64,000 bases of DNA, taken from contig CM022671.1 of NCBI GenBank assembly GCA_012295275.1, forward strand, positions 17,980,001 through 18,044,000, in the 5' to 3' direction. Below the pieces are notes generated by a model. The model saw only the letters and a list, made by a program, of their open reading frames with translations, was not told the DNA's origin and did no database searches. This document shows, one piece after another, positions 38,060-50,900 of the stretch (position 1 is the first letter of the stretch; every line of letters begins with the position of its first letter). The position numbers and the translations under genes were made by a program. Source of the stretch: Chrysomallon squamiferum. Its lineage: Eukaryota > Animalia > Mollusca.

Positions 38060-39495
38060 AAAGAAGTCTTCCACAGTATACAGATTTAAGTAACATTATT
38101 TTGAAAATATTATTTTATTGTTTATCATTGAATTGCACACTAACAGAAAATTTAGATGTGGAGACACTCACATATACTCATATCATCTTAAATATTTCAA
38201 TCCCTTTAATACCTAGAATATTGTATCCAGCATAAATATATATTTTCATTTGCAATTGCTTTGTTTGTTTGATGTGTTTTTTTCTGTTATGAATATTACA
38301 AATATGAGTCTTTGAATTAAAAGAACTTCAGATAGAAAAAAAATCCTAATTATTTTTTTAGAGATTTCAGCAAATTTTGTTGAGTGAATATTTTATATAA
38401 ATTATAATAATCCTAACATACAAATTAAACTGAGCCGATTAACAACAATATTTTAATGTTAAATATATTGCAAAGAATATTGAGTACAAAGTAAATTTAT
38501 TAATAAATGTGACAGGCAAGTGTCCTTGTCATCAGTTTACTCTTGTTTTTTGTTTTTTCAAAAACTGTTTTTAACAATTTGTGTCAAAGAACAGAATATT
38601 TCATGCCATCACTATTTTTGTTAATACATTTCAGTCTCAACACACTGACCATTCATGATTACAAATTAGAGCCCTGTTTTTAGTACTGAGAACATACCAG
38701 TTTAATCATTAAGAAAACTAAATTTAGTAAATAAAAATCTGGTTAGTTGTTAGTAAAAATCTTGGTATCCCAGTTTGTTGTCTACTATCATTCTTTTTGA
38801 AATATATATACATTTCAGATCTACCTGTTACTGATAGAGATTTTTAAAAAAGAAATAAAAACACTGTTATAGGCAATATGTTATCATCAAATTTGTTATG
38901 GCAGCCCTATCTGAACCATGCCCTCATCTACTGGACATTTAACAAAACCTAACAATTATTAATTGGTTTCTTTCTACCTTAGGGTATTTTAATATATATA
39001 TACATTTCACACAAATTTTTTTAAAAATTTAATGTTTTCTGTATTAAAAGGTTACCTCTTGATTAAGCATGTATTTTAACACCATTAAATAACAAGTTAT
39101 TTTACCTAGAATAATGTAACACAACAGACTTAATCCAATCTGACATTATTTTACTAATAAATATACAAGATTTTTGAGAACTTGAAATATTTTAATCTTT
39201 TACATTATGATATTTATTAAATCAACTGGGGATTTGTTCTGGTTATATACAAGTTAAGACAATCACACTTCCATATATTATAATTACTGCTTTCATTTTT
39301 TTTTTTTTTCACAACAGACACACTCCAACCTCCAATTTCTACTACACAACAATGTTAACATTATTTTTTTTTTCAATTTCACATCGACTTATGTTTTACT
39401 ATATTCCTTTTGTTTGTTTTTTCTTTCTTTTTTTTTTTTTTTTTTTTTTTTTTTTCTTGTTAAAAAACACACTGGAATATACACATGCACACATT

Positions 39496-40128
39496 TTACA
39501 TTTCTTCTTTTGTTTTTTCCTTTGAACCGAGAAGAGATTTCTCTTTTTCAATCCATTTATCCATATCCTGAAAAAAAAAAATTAAATATATACAAATAAA
39601 TGCATAAAATATAATATATAAATATACAACTGAGTGCTATAAACAAAAATGAAAGACAAAGTTGCCCATAAAATCTACCAATGATGAAAAGTTAATGTTT
39701 ATTTTGTTAACAATGTATTTAGAAAATCTTATTTAAGTGTTACATAAATAATCAACATTTTAACACAGATCATATCAACAATCTTATCCACCACAAAAAA
39801 AAAAAAAAAAAATTATTTTCTGTTGTTCTTGAAATTTATTAGTCTTTTTTTTTTCTTTTCCCCATTAAAATTTTATATTAAAAGTATATTTAAATTTTAT
39901 ATTTTGAAGTTCAAACATATACTTCACAAATAACTGATGTTTATTATTTACACTCTACCATAAAAGATTTCAGATAAGGGGTAGATGAAATGTACAATTA
40001 ACACTGTAATGGACATTCACCTCTAAGGGTTTGTAGTAAATATGAACCACTTGTGCTCCTGCACCCATAGTCAACAATGCAGCTGCCAAAAATCTGAAAT
40101 AACCTGGAGGCAAGCGTCCCACCACCAT
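39496..40128 (-). CDS. UQCC6: BRAWNIN / C12orf73 / sloth2 complex III assembly microprotein, 59 aa, 2 exons
   Basis: Exons 40128-40021 (GAG|gtgaat) and 39567-39496 (tttcag|GAT) give MVVGRLPPGYFRFLAAALLTMGAGAQVVHIYYKPLEDMDKWIEKEKSLLGSKEKTKEEM. This matches the recalled family signature (human AMCAGAEVVHRYYRP; fly AGSQAVHLYYKPLED). Strong start context aaaaATGG. Confidence 0.92.
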
Positions 40129-40274
40129 TTTTGATACAGAACACTAATTATATCCAAACACTATGTGAAATCCACCGAAATGTCTATGTTAGTATGTATT
40201 GTTTATTATAACACGTTATCACTAAAAGGTCTCAGCAGAAAAAGAATGTACATCAAAATGTTGATTTTATGATA

Positions 40275-41439
40275 TCACAGTTTATTTTTAGATGTTGCTG
40301 AAGTTTCCAGACTCTGCATAGCAATTTTATGTGCTTGTTTTTCCTTGTATACTGAATCTAAAGAAGAGAAAACAAAACTGTAATGAAAGTGAAATACTTT
40401 TAGATCATACTAATGCACAACTAGCCAAAATGTATTTAATGAAAAAAAAAACCATTTGATTATTTGATATAAATTATTTACATTAATATTTAATGACCGT
40501 TTCAAAATGTCACACACCTGCCAAAAACAGTAAAATAAGGCCTACCACGTTAATCCAAATAAACAAAAAATGATTTAGCATGCATGTGTGTGTTCTTGAT
40601 GTGATTTTATAAAACTGTTTTGTTAAAATAATTAGTTTTAGATTCTAAAATGTTCACGTACATCAAATGCATTCAAGAACGCAGCTTTAATCAACATAAA
40701 CGAAGCCGTGCATCAACCTGTCTAATCACTGACAGAATGAATAATTAATTTCTCTTATTAATAGCAAAGGATGTATTATGTTAACTTTCCCATTGATAAC
40801 ATCAAAGAGCACTAGCTGTGCTGAAAATAACCGACGCGGAACAATAAAGACTGATCATCAAACCTCTAACAAGTGTTGAAATGGGAACCATTCGTCAAAG
40901 TTAAATAAAAGAATATTTGAAAAATAAAAATAAAAAAATAAAAAATAAACGAAAACTGATCAAAATATTAATATAGATGCTCGACGTATAAAAGATAAAT
41001 AGGCTGATATTCTCTAATGCCCCAGCATGATCTTAACTTCTTTAAACGGTTATTCAGTTAAAAATGTTAATAAATTCGTTTGGATCACGTTTATTTCCAT
41101 TTGGCATTTTCCAATTTGAATGTCTAGCGGATTTCAATTTTGAGAGTTATGTCCCTTCTACTTGAATCGTCAGTCCCACATTTTATAAAATAAATATAAT
41201 GCAAACCAATGCATCAGCCATAACTGCGAAAATTATGTTATTTCATTCTTACATATGGAATATTTCACAAACTTACAAAAGTTAATCTGTCCTACTCTCC
41301 AATTTACCATTGAAAACTCAACTGCAGCTCCCAAAACAAAAAAAATCGGAAGAAATCTATACATTCCAAACGTTTTTTTCCCAGGCCATGCCTGCATAAT
41401 GCGTTGAATTGTTCTACTAAAAAAGAATCTACTAATCAT
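40275..41439 (-). CDS. UQCC5: SMIM4 / sloth1 complex III assembly microprotein, 81 aa, 2 exons
   Basis: Exons 41439-41277 (T|gtaagt) and 40357-40275 (tttag|AT). WPGKKTFGMYRFLPIFFVLGAAVEFSMVNWRVGQINFYSVYKEKQ matches the recalled human PGKQRFGIYRFLPFFFVLGGTMEWIMIKVRVGQETFYDVYRRK. Confidence 0.94.
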
Positions 41440-41692
41440 GATTTTATTTTAGGACATGTGCTCACTTTCTTGTCTCATTTCACCTTTCAGTTGCTGACAT
41501 TTTGTAACTTGCCCATGCGCAGAGTAAACTTTCAGAATACTAGAAATGTGCCGAGAACGTTGATTGGATTAATCACATTTATCAACCAATCACATCTTAG
41601 TTTACACGATTATTCCTGTTTAGAAAAATCTGCAGAGAAAATGGGAGCACTTACCGAATAACTGGAAAGATTAATTTCATATAATCTGTTAG
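41440..41692. promoter_or_regulatory. bidirectional promoter SMIM4/TDG and probable non-coding TDG exon 1
   Basis: NRF1-like TGCCCATGCGCA 41510-41521; oppositely oriented CCAAT boxes (ATTGG 41563, CCAAT 41586); donor AG|GTATGT at 41692/3; CpG-retaining surroundings 40500-42170. Confidence 0.75.
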
Positions 41693-42184
41693 GTATGTTT
41701 GGCTTTAATTTTCCTCTCGATAAAAGGCTTTACTAATCAAGATTTCTGTTCAGCTACTTGGTAAAACAACTGCATTAATATACATCAAAATCAAATACTG
41801 GTCATCGTGTATTGGAAGTTGAAATGGCCCTCTCGGCCACTCTGCCATTGGGCCATTGTCATTGTTTCGTTTAGTTGAGATTTCAAAAGTCCCTGATGAA
41901 TCATCTGATTTGTTGTCTCAGATGTCCAGAATTAAGTTTGCGATCGATTTCTAGTGAACCTTTTTTAGTCGGAACATTACCACCGTTTCTTAATAAAAGG
42001 TAATTATTAAATTTGTATTTATCGGGGATTCAGTTACTGAGCTTATTCGTTTCCAGATTTTCGTTATTCATTTTACGATGAAAAAATAATTTTAAAAAAT
42101 GACTGGTTTAATCGTATGCATTTGATATTATTTTAAATCATTTATATTTTTATTCCACTGTGTACGTTTTGTTTATGTTGCCCA

Positions 42185-42187
<3 letters not shown>

Positions 42188-42232
<45 letters not shown>
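42188..42232. repeat. (GT)n microsatellite
   Basis: Directly visible. Confidence 0.95.
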
Positions 42233-42234
<2 letters not shown>

Positions 42235-43380
42235 TTTTTTGTTTATCCCAAAGACTTTAACTAATGGTAATGACTAATATAATATATCCGTAATGTATTA
42301 TTATTCATTATAAATTCATTATATATCCTTTAATTAAATATGAAGTTTAAAATAATACATAAATGCAAAATTGTATATAACACAGTTGTAGAAAAACAAG
42401 ATACTGACATGACATATATGTGTGCATGTTGTTCAGCTAGTTGCACACACACACACACACACACAATAATATATCTATATGTGTGCCAGTATATATGTGT
42501 GTTTTTATATGAATTATTAATATCTAACTCAACTCTAAAACTAACCGTGAAATTAACCCTGAACCTAGAGGCAGAAATTATTATATTTCTTGAATAGATC
42601 AGTTAATGTTGATAATGTATTGTTTGATAGTGGATGAACTAGCTCTGATTATTTGTCCTCAGTGTAAATCCAGTTAGTGTTCCCATCTTGTCAAAGATAT
42701 TTGACATTACTGTTTAGCAGAACGTGAAAAATGGTGTCCTTTTGCTAATCTTTAAGTTTAAAATCGGTCAAAAATATAAGGACTGGTTTTATTGGTTGTA
42801 TCCATTACAAATCACATGGTTAGCAGCTTACAACTGGTTGTTTTTATGTGAAATCATAAACTTTGTTTTTCCAATAACCTCAGTATAAAATTTTATGTAG
42901 AAACTAGAAGAGAATATCAGTGGAAACAAAACAACTGTTAATACAAAAACATGTTGAGACATTAAATATTTGTTTAATCATTTGATCTGAACATGTAATG
43001 ATATCTTATGTATGTTCACATGTTGATCATTAAATGAAAAATTCCACTGAGCAAAATCATCAAAATTATTCTTACTTTGATAATAACATTCAATTAGATT
43101 TTATTAATATATATTTTTTTTTAAATTAATGTTATTAATATTTCAGCAACAATTAATTATTTGATTAAACATTAACATCACTTAAACATGAAATACTTCA
43201 ATACCTGTTATTTGTTGCTGGACCATTCATTTATAAAACTCTAATTCTAATAAAGTATGCCAGTATTCAATAAAATAGTTTAAAAAGATAAATCATAAAA
43301 AGAAGAATTGTTCAAATATTTATTTTTATTAGTTTTACAATTGATAATTTCTTCCTGCTGGCCTGCTTTATAGGGACAGA

Positions 43381-43606
43381 TGTAAATAAAATAATTAATA
43401 CTGAATCTTATTAATGCACTTGTTAAACCAATGACTTGATGCTACAGCTGGTTAAACTGCTGTTGTTATAAGACCAACACCTTCTTTGTTCCTGTAAACA
43501 AAATAATTAATACTGAATCTTATTAATGCACTTGTAAAAAACCAATTACTTGACCCTAAAGCTGATTAAACAGTAGTTGTTATAAGACCATCACCTTCTT
43601 TGTTGC
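43381..43606 (+). repeat. tandem duplication of about 112 bp (2 copies)
   Basis: 43381-43492 and 43493-43606 share aaaataattaatactgaatcttattaatgcacttgt and gttgttataagacca.caccttctttgtt. Confidence 0.9.
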
Positions 43607-43911
43607 TATAAATAATAGTAATTTTCAAATATTCTGGCATAAAAGAAACCAAAAAATGCACCTGTTAGACAGATATGGGTTGTTTTTTTTGTACATATTA
43701 AAAAGGTTAAAGTGAAGTATTTTATATAACTAATGTAAGACAAATGTTTAAGAATCAGAATTTTTTTTTAAATACAAGTCAAAAACAAGTAATCTGCTTG
43801 ACTGTCAGACTCAAAGTGATAAAGTTTATGTTTATTTTACTGTTTTGATTTTCATGTTATTGAAATATATTTGTTTTATTTTTCAGTGCAGCTTTTTGAT
43901 TGCACTGTAAG

Positions 43912-45631
43912 ATGGATATGAGCAACCAAAACATGTATGTTCAAGCTCTGCTCTTCTTTTCTTTTGTTGTTGTTGTGCACAAAAAGTACAAAATATAGTG
44001 TAAACTAATAAAAAAAAAAAAATGTATGACTATATTGTTTAATTTTATTAATAAATAAAATTTAAATAAATAGAAAAGAATATGGCATGGTCTATCGGTT
44101 TGGGGGTAATGAACCTTTAAAGAGTTCATCTACTTCATAAGAATGAAAATAATAATATAAATGTGTTTGTAACAATGTTCTATTCTTTTAATAAAAATAG
44201 TAATAATTCATGCCTAACTGATTTGAATAGTTGTTTGAGGAATGTAATTACTTCTGCAGGTACAGGTGTAAAAACTAATTAACAATGCAATACCTAATAA
44301 CACACTAATACACTATTTACACAGTGTAATACATATAACAATGTTATACACAATATTGTAATAATTTAAACTAACACAATGTAACATATAATGTAATAAA
44401 TTAACATAATGCAATACATAATGTTGTAAGAAAGTAACACATTAATGATTATGTAAATTCTAAGAAAAATAATTTGTTTTCCTTCGATATAACTTTTATC
44501 TCCTCTTCTTTCTGAGTACTGATTTATAAGTATTTATTATTGCTTTATTTTCTTAACATATATATATATAATTTGAATTTTTATTTATGTTTTACTTCTT
44601 TTTTCCTTTCTTAAACATTTCTTATTATTGTTCTTTTTTTTTACTTTATTTTTTTGTTATTATTTTTTCTTTACCTTCTTATTTTAATTTTTTTTTTTTT
44701 TACATACTTGTTTTATTATTATTATTATTATTAATATTATTATTATTATTATTTATTAATATGAAAAGATTTTGGAGAAAATATTGACGAATAAAACATA
44801 TTTTTAGGTTTTTCCATCAAATGCAGTCCTACCAGGCTTATGCACAGCAACAAATGATGAACTCACAAATGGGAATTATAGATCAGAAACCAATAGGACT
44901 TGTACAGCAGTTTGGGAGGGATGAACAGAATGTTAATACAACAGAGAAGAAACCTGCAAAGCCATCTAAAAGAAAGAAGAAAGTGAAGTAAGATAAAAGA
45001 AGTTATGAGAACTGTGATTGGTTCGTTTACTTCATGTATGTGTGGTGTGTAATCAAAGTAGTTTTCACTGGATCTTGTAATATAGCACTATAATCCCACC
45101 AAAAAAATAAAAAAATAAAATAAAATAAAATAAAATAAAATTTAAAATGGCCTGAAACTGTATTTAATTCACTGTATATGTTTTCATCATTCATTTATAT
45201 TTACTGAGCTTTATAATTCAAAGATTGAAAACTATTTTTATTATTATTATTTATTTATATATATTTTTAAATTTTTATTGTTTAATGTAATAGATTAGAT
45301 GCCAACAAGTTTGAATTAATAATTTGAAATGTTAATATTGACTTGATAATTGTGAAATATTTATTTATTTATAATTATCTTAGTAGCTTTCTGTGAATGT
45401 GAACACCATTTAATAAAACACCTTTATTTTACAGTGGAGATTACATACATATATAAATATTGTAAAATAAACTGATGTGTACTGTTCTTTGATGATGATG
45501 ATTATTATTAGTAGTAGTAGTAGTGGTGTGGTGGTAGCAGTAGTAGTATAATTGTTATTTTTATTTTTATTTTCTTTAATTATTTTATTATTATTATTAT
45601 TATTTTTATTATTATTATTATTATTATTATT

Positions 45632-45672
<41 letters not shown>

Positions 45673-46232
45673 AAAATATTTTAAAAATCAGGCCATATCA
45701 ATGATATTTTCCAGTGGAATTAATTAATATAACAATTTTCTTTACTTCATCCTCCGATTTTTCTTCGTTTATTTTTCAAATTATGATCTTATTATTTCAC
45801 AACAGAAAAACAAGCACATAAAATTTATACTTCAAAATAACCCTTTTTTTTTTTTTTTTTTTTTTTGTTTGTTTGTTTCAGAAGATAGTTTTACTAGAAC
45901 ATTTTTAAACATTTTTAAACATTGTGTTTATTTTACAGGGAAACTGTTACTATTAAAGTAGAAGATGGGGTCACAGACAAGAAGAAGATGAAACAGGCTA
46001 AAATTACAGAACATCTGACAGTGAGAAAGAAACGAGACAGATTCAACGGAATGCCAGAGGAAGATGTGATCAAGAGAACTCTCCCAGACCACCTCGCAGA
46101 AAACCTTGATATCGTTATTGTAAGTTCTTAAAGATATAAACAATTTTTTTTTTAAATTAATTAATTAAAAAATTTAAGATTAAAAAGTATTCATGATGAT
46201 GAGCTTTTATAATAATATTCACTTTTTTTAAA

Positions 46233-46295
<63 letters not shown>

Positions 46296-47886
46296 GGAAG
46301 AATCTTTTCCATATTAGACTTTATTTTTAACTTAAGAATTTAAACCATAAATACTCTGTCACACTGTTTTGTTTTAATTACTGAAACCATTAAATTGAAT
46401 TGTTTACACCAAGTAATTCTAATCCTGTAACTTTTTGGTTATGAAGAAGTTGCTTAAATAATTTTTTCTTTACTTCTTAATGATTCTTTTGATTCATATG
46501 ATCAGTATAACTAATAGGAAAATACATTAAAATGCAAGCATGCATTAAGACTAACAGTTATCCAGCTGTATTGTGATGGTATTTTGTATATGTTGGAATA
46601 TCAAAAATACTTGATAGACTGAGTATGCAGTAATTTTTATCTTCTCAGTTTTGTTTTGTTTTGTTTTGTTTTGTTTTGTTTTGTTTTGTTTTTATTTTAT
46701 TTTATTTTATTTTATTTTATTTTATTTTATTTTATTTTATTTATTTATTTATTTATTCAAAAAATATTCCCATGATAAATATTTAAATATTCTATTAAAG
46801 GATAAATTAATTCTTGTTTTCATGTAAAAATAATATGTAAAAGTGAAAATGATATAAAAATAACTGGTTTTATAACAAATAGAAGACAGTGGCTTCTTAC
46901 ATGTAATAAAATTTCTGAAATTATTACTCAGTAATCTTGTTTGTCTGGGGGCTTATATTCATTAGAGAAGTTCAGCTCTGAATGGTTCAATTTCAATGAA
47001 TATTTATTAGCAGCTCCTTAATACATTTTAATAATACAAACTTACTAGACTCAGATATTCTTGCAGTATAATACTGAGCAATGAACCTTCTGTATGTACT
47101 TACTAACAAAGCAGTTATGGGGCAATAAATGAAACAGAATTCATTACATGTAAGTTATTTGTCAGGAAGTATTAACAAAATAGATTACTGAATTTTCTAA
47201 ATTAATTTGGATAATCTGTTTCAGATTGGTATTAATCCTGGATTATTTGCTGCCTATGTAGGACATCACTATGCAGGACCAGGAAACCATTTTTGTAAGT
47301 TGTTTTTAATATATTTTATGTGATCTGACATTATTTGAATTATTAAATTGTCTTGGTTAATGTAAGAATTCGGACCTCATAGCAAAAAAAAAAGTGGTCT
47401 CATAGTTTCTAGATTTGATTTTCTTTTTTATCTAACTGGAACTGCTAAAGAAAAAACTATAATAAGAAACTAAAAAAAAGGCCTTTTTTTATTGTTAAAT
47501 AATGTGGCATAGACATAATTTGTTTTACATGCATTTTGTTCATACATTATTTTCTTTTATCTTTTTCTAAATGTCTAAAAATGTGTATAATTCCTTTTTA
47601 CAAAAAGGTTACTTATTCTTTTCTATGTATGTAATTCAAACATATAAGTAAAATATATAATTTTAGTTATTAGAATATTACATTTGAACTTTTTTTTTTT
47701 TTTTTCTGATATTTTTTAAAAACAATGTGAATAATATTTTAGTAAATACATACATACTTACATTGTTATAATTTTGTATTTATTATTATTTTATTTTATT
47801 TTCAGTATTTAATACAGTAAATGTATTTAGTGATTTTTGTTATTGATATTACTGATTTTTTTTATTTTCATAGAGAAATGTTTGTG

Positions 47887-47932
<46 letters not shown>

Positions 47933-50900
47933 GGTTTTTATTTTGTAATTTTTGTTATTAAAACAACTGACTGTTATTTTTCCACAGGGAAATGTTTGTA
48001 TTTATCTGGTTTGATACCTGAACCTATGAATGCCTATGATGATTCGAAACTGCTGGATTTTGGTATAGGATTTACAAACATTGTTGGCAGAACCACTCGT
48101 GGAAGTGTAGATCTGAAAAAGTAAGCTATTTCTTATTTCTTGTTATTTATTTACTTAACCCTTTGGCACAAAACATACTTCTCAATTCCAGGTATTTTTT
48201 GGGGAAAAATTACCTAAGTGAAATATCAGTTTTAACTTAGGCTAGTGCATTTAGTCGAGATAAGTGGTCTTCTAGCATGTGGAAATATCCTGGCAATGAC
48301 ACCAAAAGGGTTAAGCTTAAAGGTGTTAAATGATAGTGTTTTTGAACAGACACGTAATACTGGGATATACAGGAATATATCAATTTATGTTGTTAAGCAG
48401 ATAAGTACAGGGATTCTGTTCAGTTTGTTGATATATATATATATATATGTATATAGAATCTATTCAGTAAGTTTATACATGCTGAACTTAATGAGTTACT
48501 TATGTTGATCAGTACTTAACTCTAGTTACATGACAAGTTTTTTTTAAACTGTTTACTTAAACATTGCACATCTCATCATATAAAACATATATGAAAATCT
48601 CACATCAACCACCCTCCAGTTAATTTTACTCACAAATGTCTTGTTTATCCCACCATTTATGCAGTGAGCCATAAGATAATGTCTTTATAATCATTATTTT
48701 TACCTAAGCTGTCTTGAAGCCAGGTTTGTTTGCTCCATGTTTTGTTTGTCAGAGAATAGTAAAATTAGGGGTATCTATAGTGTTTTTTAATGGTTCAATT
48801 AGTTCTGCAAATATGTATTTAATCAGATAAAATAACAGTTTTATCTAATACTACTGTTAAAGCTGGTAGAGTATCATTATTTCTTGTTTTATATTATTTC
48901 ATATTAGTTCCAACTTTTTTCTTGTTTAATTTTTATCATTTATGTGAAACTTTTCTTACATGGCCTAGTTATTTTTAAATTTTCTAGTATAAGATTAAAA
49001 ATATATATATAATTTAAAAACTATAGTACTTTAAGATGTTTTTGTTCTGAATTTGTAAATAGATACATTGTTTTTCTCTACATATTTTATAATTTCATTT
49101 TTTAAAATTTGTTTTTCTTAATCCAGAGAAGAAATAAAAGAAGGAGCTCAGATTTTAAAAGAAAAAATCATCAAATACAAACCAAAGATTGCTGTTTTCA
49201 ATGGAAAAGGTTTGCATTTAAAAATGAATCAAGATTTTAATATTTTAAATTATATGATGTTTTATATTTAAACTTTACTGGATTTGATTAGGGGTTTATT
49301 TATTTTTGTTTTCTGTGTAGCAGTGTAAGGCCAGGTGTTTTATATTTTATTATAAATGTTGGTTTATAAAATAGGTGTCACAAATTATTTAATTAAATTT
49401 GTTTCTTTCAAATCTTTACTCCAGGAATTTATGAAGTCTTCTTGGGTCACAAGAATTTCTATTTTGGAAAACAGCCTGAAGTATTAGATGGATCTAACAC
49501 AGTGAGTTTTTTCAAGATATATATATTTTTCATTCCATTGACATTTTCTTTTCATTTATCTTTAAATCCTGTAACTTTGGCCTTTCCTACATTTTAAATA
49601 CATCCCTCAATTATTTTGAAAACATAATGTTAAGTAGATTCCAAAATACATTTCTGTTACAATTATCTGAAGAAGAAATAATTTAATTTTTTAATCATCA
49701 ATTTTTATTTTAAACAAATCAGTTGTGATGAAATTGTTTTTATTGTTACTGTTAAGGTTTTCTTTAATTAAACAAATAACATTAGATGGAAAATTGTTTT
49801 TATTGTTATTTTTTTATTGTTATTTTTAAGGTTTTCTGTGTTTAAACAAATCACATCAAATCAACTGGATTTTCAAGGTTGTCTGTGTTTAAACAAATGG
49901 ATATCAGGATGAAATTGTTTTTAATGTTATTTTAAGGTTTTCTGTGTTTAAACAAATCAAATCAGGTTGTCGATGTTTAAACAAATTAAATCAGGTTATC
50001 TTGATGAAATTGTTTTGTTATTTTCAAGGTTGTGTAAAAACAAATTGTTTTGTTTTGTTATTTTTAAGGTTGTCTGTTTTAAACAAATCACATCAGGATT
50101 TTATTGTTATTGTTAAGGTTTTTTGTGTTTAAACAAATCAAAATTGTTATTTTAAAGGTTTTAAACAAATCACATCAGGATATCATGATGAAATTGTTTT
50201 TGTGGTTATTGTTAAGGTTTTCTGTGTTTAAACAAATCACATCAGTATAATTGTTTTGTTATTTTCAAGGTTGTCTATGTTTAAACACATCACATCAGTA
50301 TAATTGTTTTGTTATTTTCAAGGTTGTCTATGTTTAAACACATCACATCAGTATAATTGTTTTGTTATTTTCAAGGTTGTCTATGTTATGCCGTCCTCAA
50401 GTGCCCGTTGCGCTCAGCTTCCGAGAGCAGTGGACAAGCTACCGTTCTTCACAGCCCTGAAGAAACTTCGAGACCATCTCCGTGGCGACATCCACCTGGA
50501 AGACGACTCGGAAGTGACGTTTCCTGACCTAGAGCTGAAGGTGTTCAAGCAGGAGAAAATAGAACCGGTTGAAAACGAAGAAGTTGTTCCAGAAGCTCAG
50601 AAACTGACGGCAGCTTCTGCTTCTGTGCTTTCACATGACATTCAGGTCAGTCCGAACTCAATGTGGCCCCCAGTGAAGCAAGAAAAAGGCTACAACCCGG
50701 CTGATTACGGTGGAATGTCCAACCAGGCACCAATGGCTGCGTCTGCAGCACATGCTCATGCCAAGAATGTGTATAAAAATTCCCATGAGATGAGCTATCC
50801 GCTGACAAACAGTTCAGGAGCTCAGGCGTTGAGTGTGGATCTCACAGTCCCACACACGACTAACTCAGGTTTCTTTCCCAATACTGATCTTCACTCTCTA

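Follow-up and report, generated by a model that had tools for sequence, protein, structure and literature searches.

Two small proteins, Sloth1 and Sloth2, are encoded in Drosophila by one bicistronic gene, sloth1-sloth2 (CG32736-CG42308). The same bicistron is described in a choanoflagellate, the sea squirt and the lamprey, and leaky scanning was proposed for it (Bosch et al. 2022, PMC9681215). Both peptides are made, are mitochondrial and are needed for complex III, which was shown in fly and human, and in the fly their ratio matters, as an excess of Sloth2 is lethal without co-expression of Sloth1 (PMC9681215). In jawed vertebrates the same peptides, SMIM4/UQCC5 and C12orf73/UQCC6 (BRAWNIN), come from separate genes on different chromosomes (PMC9681215). 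In engineered bicistrons the output of the downstream ORF is lower by a factor of about a thousand. It rises when splicing occurs within the upstream ORF, without fully closing the gap between the two ORFs; the authors of that work prefer leaky scanning to reinitiation (PMC11751868). Reinitiation declines as the uORF lengthens (PMC10275272). The production of a second protein from an animal bicistronic mRNA is known for few genes. A natural analogue of splicing in an upstream ORF is papillomavirus E6*/E7.

Here we analyse a locus in the genome of the mollusc Chrysomallon squamiferum, within a window of 64,000 nt (the whole stretch examined; all positions are counted from its first letter). The upstream ORF matches Pfam PF15114 (UPF0640) with E 1.3e-24 and 86.3 bits vs a cut-off of 27, and encodes an SMIM4/UQCC5 protein of 81 aa from the ATG at 41439. 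The downstream ORF matches PF14990 (DUF4516) with its exon 1 alone (E 1e-10, 41.6 bits vs a cut-off of 27) and encodes a BRAWNIN/UQCC6 protein of 59 aa. The identity of the two genes, put forward in an earlier note on this DNA, is thus borne out, and on these matches we take the locus to be the mollusc version of the published sloth1/sloth2 bicistron. The features are collected in the table.

Features of the SMIM4-BRAWNIN locus, in the order of transcription of the minus-strand gene
Feature	Positions	Strand	Evidence or remark
First exon of divergent gene, inferred TDG-like	41636..41692	+	loose ends of X3 and X4 at 41692, continuing at 43887
Shared 5' leader / upstream exon of bypass isoform	41466..41495	-	positions 1-30 of X4 record 20, 0 differences
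Leader uORF	41449..41478	-	9 codons in full isoform; AUG 41478 opens 31-codon uORF in bypass isoform
Alternative 5' splice site AAA/GTGAGC	41460..41465	-	26 nt between cut and SMIM4 AUG
SMIM4 coding exon 1	41277..41439	-	start codon and 4 of 5 in-frame AUGs; spliced to 40357 in X1, X2 and X3
SMIM4 intron, 919 nt, GT..AG	40358..41276	-	after conserved NF codons; one acceptor for both donors
SMIM4 C-terminal coding part and TGA stop (40277-40275)	40275..40357	-	leader sequence in bypass isoform
Intercistronic spacer, 146 nt	40129..40274	-	exonic, polymorphic, fold no better than shuffles
Spacer uORF, 15 codons, weak context (-3 T, +4 T)	40206..40253	-	stop 40208-40206
Acceptor-like CCTTTTAG	40222..40229	-	no joint there in 4 runs; no use seen
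AATAAA	40202..40207	-	no poly(A) use seen; contigs pass into BRAWNIN in 4/4 runs
BRAWNIN coding exon 1	40021..40128	-	ATG 40128; strong start context (-3 A, +4 G)
BRAWNIN intron after KPLE	39568..40020	-	RNA records cross without gap in 4/4 runs
BRAWNIN coding exon 2 and TAA stop (39498-39496)	39496..39567	-	covered by RNA contigs

As in Drosophila, the two families stand in the same order, one spliced contig runs over both ORFs and the start context of the second ORF is strong. The ORFs are also mutually out of frame, which rules out stop read-through or an SMIM4-BRAWNIN fusion. Three features differ. The spacer is 146 nt here vs 5 nt in Drosophila, the A at -3 of the SMIM4 AUG contrasts with a weak context in the fly, and an alternative donor whose use takes out the start of the first ORF is seen here.

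Five public runs hold this stretch, of which four are RNA runs from one study (X1-X4), and their assembled contigs were aligned to the window. Contigs of this kind drop rare variants and yield no isoform ratio, strand, 5' end or 3' end. In all four runs one record covers 40357-40020 and goes on at 39566; hence, the spacer is exonic and unspliced. The full form, with the normal SMIM4 splice and both ORFs, is a path assembled in three of the four runs. In X2 (record 9) and X3 (record 14) one spliced contig each spans both ORFs, which for short-read contigs is not proof of a single molecule; in X1 the normal SMIM4 joint is present but divided between two records. Isoform shares taken from contig depth (X1: 45.6 downstream vs 26.7 over the SMIM4 exon), or from the lack of any SMIM4-exon contig in X4, were set aside, as neither depths nor holes prove anything; X1 also lacks a leader piece of its own. 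The contigs of all four runs end at 39470, beside a masked A-run repeat, and such a contig end need not be the true 3' end. A genomic run of about 30 A (39427-39456, minus strand) follows soon after the BRAWNIN stop, with the next AATAAA at 39218. The base before the BRAWNIN AUG (window 40129) changes from A to T on the minus strand in X3 and X4, and the A at -3 is unaltered.

A second splice form appears in X4, where record 20 joins 41466 to 40357. The joint skips 1108 nt, all of which are present in the genomic sequence of the window, with GT..AG borders (CT..AC on the plus strand) and no shared joint bases, and the record runs on through the spacer and both BRAWNIN exons. A canonical GT donor (41465) is thus joined in RNA, in one of the four runs, to an AG acceptor (40358) that is otherwise in use, as expected of an alternative 5' splice site. 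The joint is carried by a single assembled contig, whose short side is 30 nt where the bridging rule asks for 31 nt. Misalignment does not explain it because the 30-nt anchor has no second copy in the window (closest other match 21/30) and is unlike the flanks of the sites involved, with which it agrees at 10/30 (the 30 nt before the normal donor) and 7/30 positions (acceptor). No GTRAG other than this donor occurs in the 56-nt leader, and such a string is found in 4-5% of 56-nt tiles. The donor has 6/11 matches to the U1 consensus vs 7/11 for both used donors. A search for spliced leaders on BRAWNIN had been proposed in the earlier note; the 41466/40357 join of X4 is one such leader. In the 12 listed related loci, none of them known as a mollusc, 0/12 have a GTRAG donor within the stretch of at most 60 nt that precedes their first in-frame ATG, which gives no support to conservation of the bypass donor; several of these first ATGs are probably not the true starts.

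Record 14 of X3 and record 20 of X4 share their first base, 41495, which leaves exactly 30 nt up to the bypass donor. TCA is an initiator-like motif, and assembly graphs of 31-mers fork. The common start fits either a transcription start at the TCA initiator-like site or a fork of the 31-mer graph at the donor. If transcription begins further upstream, the leader has extra ATGs at 41500 and 41516.

The bypass removes the SMIM4 start together with the first coding exon. The number of AUGs upstream of BRAWNIN falls from nine in the full form to three, and the leader ahead of BRAWNIN shortens from 448 to 259 nt. The three AUGs are those at 41478 (31-codon uORF) and 40319 (14 codons), both of whose frames end at the SMIM4 stop and both of which have a purine at -3, and that at 40253. 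In engineered bicistrons, too, the splice destroys the upstream ORF, and there the output of the downstream ORF goes up (PMC11751868); unlike in that system, this is a native nuclear gene pair and its donor lies upstream of the AUG of the first ORF. The main text of PMC9681215 contains 0 occurrences of 'splic', 'isoform', 'intron' and 'reinitiation', and the bypass splice does not appear in the listed titles and abstract beginnings on sloth1-sloth2 and SMIM4-BRAWNIN, while a literature search on UQCC5-UQCC6 splicing returned none. The gene pair is known and the spacer ordinary, and the new element is a candidate variant in the way the second ORF is reached.

The RNA contigs show two splice forms of the SMIM4-BRAWNIN gene, and we rate slightly above even the chance that most BRAWNIN is made from the bypass form, through reinitiation or leaky scanning. 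The full form would yield mostly SMIM4 because its BRAWNIN ORF sits behind nine AUGs and an 81-codon ORF, and reinitiation drops with uORF length. On the bypass form ribosomes would translate the 31- or the 14-codon uORF as far as the SMIM4 stop, move on over the 146 nt of the AUG-poor spacer, pass the weak and dispensable AUG at 40253 and initiate at the strong BRAWNIN AUG. As the bypass leaves short uORFs, an AUG-poor track and a strong BRAWNIN start, the choice between the donors 41465 and 41276 would set the ratio of the two peptides. The spacer would then serve as a neutral scanning track, carrying no poly(A), splice or uORF signals. Overlap-type termination-reinitiation was rejected, as the distance from stop to start is 146 nt vs about 30 nt or less in TURBS cases (review).

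The earlier note had pointed to the spacer itself, and the 15-codon ORF from 40253, the AATAAA (40207-40202) and the acceptor-like string (40229-40222) are all present in it as claimed. Their chance rates were estimated from 5000 dinucleotide shuffles and 438 tiles of 146 nt per strand. AATAAA occurs in 11% of the shuffles and in 43% and 29% of the tiles of the two strands; an ATG ORF of at least 15 codons in 61% of the shuffles and 47% of the tiles; a Y5-YAG acceptor-like string in 5% of the shuffles and 11-12% of the tiles. The three are found jointly in 0.4% of shuffles and in 10/438 and 1/438 tiles, for motifs that were chosen post hoc. The spacer has one ATG vs 3.7 expected, and one or none occurs in 5% of shuffles. 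These motifs are mostly ordinary in AT-rich DNA. Across the four runs the 146-nt spacer departs from the window at 9 sites (7 substitutions, 2 deletions of two bases each) vs 3 in 426 coding nt, 2 of which are synonymous (Fisher p=0.0004). The start of the spacer uORF is among the changed sites in two of the four runs, being ATA in X1 and GTG in X3. A-to-I editing of this AUG was considered and rejected: the A>G at 40253 would fit but is found in one run only, the G>A at 40251 cannot be editing, and alleles are simpler. The fold of the spacer has a z of 0.58, with 140/200 shuffles folding as well, so no RNA structure or IRES is indicated by it, though a fold cannot exclude an IRES. Chance rates, RNA read-through and polymorphism together speak against the spacer motifs as signals, although minor polyadenylation or splicing in the spacer may escape contigs of this kind. 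The earlier note had also proposed that reinitiation, polyadenylation or splicing sets the ratio of the peptides. What we retain of this is a splice (donor 41465, acceptor 40358) as the likely control; it lies outside the spacer, whose motifs have no RNA support.

In a less likely reading most BRAWNIN is translated from the full bicistronic mRNA, through leaky scanning or reinitiation as in Drosophila, and the bypass is a minor or noisy isoform. The assembly of the full form in most of the runs speaks for it, as do the fly reporters that back leaky scanning from one transcript, even though a second in-frame AUG is, by eye, present in fly sloth1 too (PMC9681215). In keeping with the earlier count of at least five, SMIM4 has exactly five in-frame AUGs (41439, 41397, 41364, 41310 and 40319), and each of the 12 listed related loci has 2-4 in-frame ATGs ahead of the NF codons, upstream of the intron there, so that multiple in-frame AUGs appear to be a family trait. 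The strong BRAWNIN context and the AUG-poor spacer would suit this route as well, and the 9-codon leader uORF, which stops 9 nt ahead of the SMIM4 AUG, could take ribosomes past that AUG. Against it, a purine stands at -3 in 6 of the 9 upstream AUGs, among them the A at -3 of the SMIM4 AUG that the weak fly context lacks, and little reinitiation would be expected after an ORF of 81 codons (PMC10275272). The nine upstream AUGs of the full form support the view of the earlier note that plain leaky scanning to BRAWNIN is unlikely.

Use of the spacer AATAAA as an alternative poly(A) signal would give an SMIM4-only mRNA, set the ratio and avoid NMD. The hexamer is intact in all four runs, GT-rich sequence lies 25-70 nt downstream, and minor use is compatible with contigs that drop rare variants. 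We judge this improbable all the same: all four runs read through and their contigs have neither a break nor a loose end at the site (contigs cannot show ends), the hexamer is common, with the tile rates given above and 8 copies in 3 kb of the minus strand, AATAAA recurs in one of six related spacers and ATTAAA in one of four checked, and BRAWNIN production would stay unexplained. Still less probable is a separate promoter inside the SMIM4 intron. Contigs derived from the intron are present in all four runs, one of them in X1 leading from 40886 into exon 2; however, the pieces are scattered over the entire intron, similar ones occur in the first intron of the neighbouring gene, as from pre-mRNA or DNA, and in three of the four runs (X2, X3 and X4) the BRAWNIN contig is linked by a splice to sequence that precedes the intron. 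Least credible of all is a regulatory role of the acceptor-like string or of the 15-codon uORF. The string is infrequent among the shuffles and has a run of pyrimidines directly before it, but no joint falls at 40222 in any of the runs and another AG lies 9 nt upstream. The tract of CCTTTTAG has 10/15 pyrimidines, compared with 14 and 12 for the two used acceptors, and the bypass uses the leader donor and the ordinary SMIM4-intron acceptor instead, contrary to the splice site suspected there earlier. The uORF start is altered in two runs, as described, and four of six related spacers have no ATG.

If the bypass splice is the main BRAWNIN source, as we suggest, it provides a simple dial for the peptide ratio where the weak-start mechanism of the fly does not fit, and it suggests a route by which a gene with two ORFs could in time come apart. 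Should the splice be rare noise, what is left is a further member of the published family with an unremarkable spacer. A broader conjecture, which we advance as speculative, is that in molluscs, and perhaps in other groups too, splicing around the SMIM4 start is a regulated switch for the ratio of the complex III assembly peptides. On this view the 'bicistron' would be a gene with two isoforms, and it is skipping that would have allowed BRAWNIN to keep the promoter shared with TDG when SMIM4 moved away in jawed vertebrates.

The layout of NMD type noticed earlier, with the SMIM4 stop about 250 nt upstream of a downstream intron, is confirmed by a measured 254 nt between the stop and the last exon junction (BRAWNIN intron), which exceeds the 50 nt of the stop-to-junction rule (PMC6173133). 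The full form is assembled in three of the four runs and is therefore not eliminated by NMD. Results on the use of the EJC in flies conflict (PMC6173133), and a search for literature on exon-junction or UPF1-dependent NMD in molluscs returned none. Among the 12 listed related loci the BRAWNIN donor lies at the same codon in all three genomic loci that reach the intron, and the SMIM4 stop precedes it by 172 nt (L004), 464 nt (L011) and 748 nt (L012). By this comparison the NMD geometry appears to be a trait of the family and not peculiar to this window.

On the plus strand, about 140 nt from the leader of the bicistron, a gene inferred to be TDG-like (41636-48121) begins head to head with it. 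Its coding exons at 45.9-48.1 kb were recognised by a PDB sequence search (E 2.4e-10 and 2e-6), and a Pfam search with the same exons gave no match. The two genes likely share a promoter. TDG stands beside C12orf73 in a table of the chicken region (PMC12937304), and here it is the head-to-head neighbour of the bicistron. The adjacency of TDG and BRAWNIN is possibly an old microsynteny. In human, TDG and C12orf73 are presumably also oriented head to head. Two further plus-strand genes lie on the other side of the pair: a THUMPD3-like gene (THUMP domain) at 17.7-21.1 kb, an exon of which has named relatives mostly in molluscs, mainly bivalves, and an XPC/Rad4-like gene (BHD_3 match) at 26.1-37.8 kb, whose end lies about 1.7 kb from the BRAWNIN stop in a tail-to-tail arrangement.

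Relatives of the pair were found in at least 12 loci, with L001-L003 and L006-L008 being near-duplicates. The SMIM4 intron donor is at the same position in 10 of the 12 listed loci, and the other two have no intron. BRAWNIN was located in six of the 12, with spacers of 4 (L002), 64 (L004), 72 (L005), 2 (L009), 356 (L011) and 640 nt (L012); five others gave no BRAWNIN match, L003 being left out. An acceptor-like AG is located 5-9 nt before the start in L001-L004 and within the N-terminal coding part in L012; by eye, L006 and L010 also have one a short way ahead of the likely start, and L011 has one within its coding part. A 5'-UTR intron is present in the fly gene (PMC9681215). The SMIM4 core exon could be skippable in those species and in the fly, being internal with an acceptor close upstream.

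Four of the related loci carry ORFs in addition to the pair. L011 and L012 have extra small ORFs between SMIM4 and BRAWNIN (L011:847-1041, L012:1299-1481 and L012:1616-1828; 64, 60 and 70 aa), none of which has a Pfam match. The first two are related to each other (43% over 30 aa, E 1e-6), with hydrophobic 19-residue windows of 2.26 and 1.49. These ORFs may encode unnamed microproteins, as part of a unit of three or four ORFs. In L005:43-1176 and L009:19-1251, both transcript-like in lacking both introns, SMIM4 and BRAWNIN are followed by MRPS34 (PF16053, E 1.4e-26 and 2.2e-18), 9 and 46 nt after the BRAWNIN stop, respectively, which makes them a candidate tricistronic mitochondrial mRNA. The 72-nt spacer of L005 (L005:262-333) is, by eye, largely a tandem duplication of about 35 nt.
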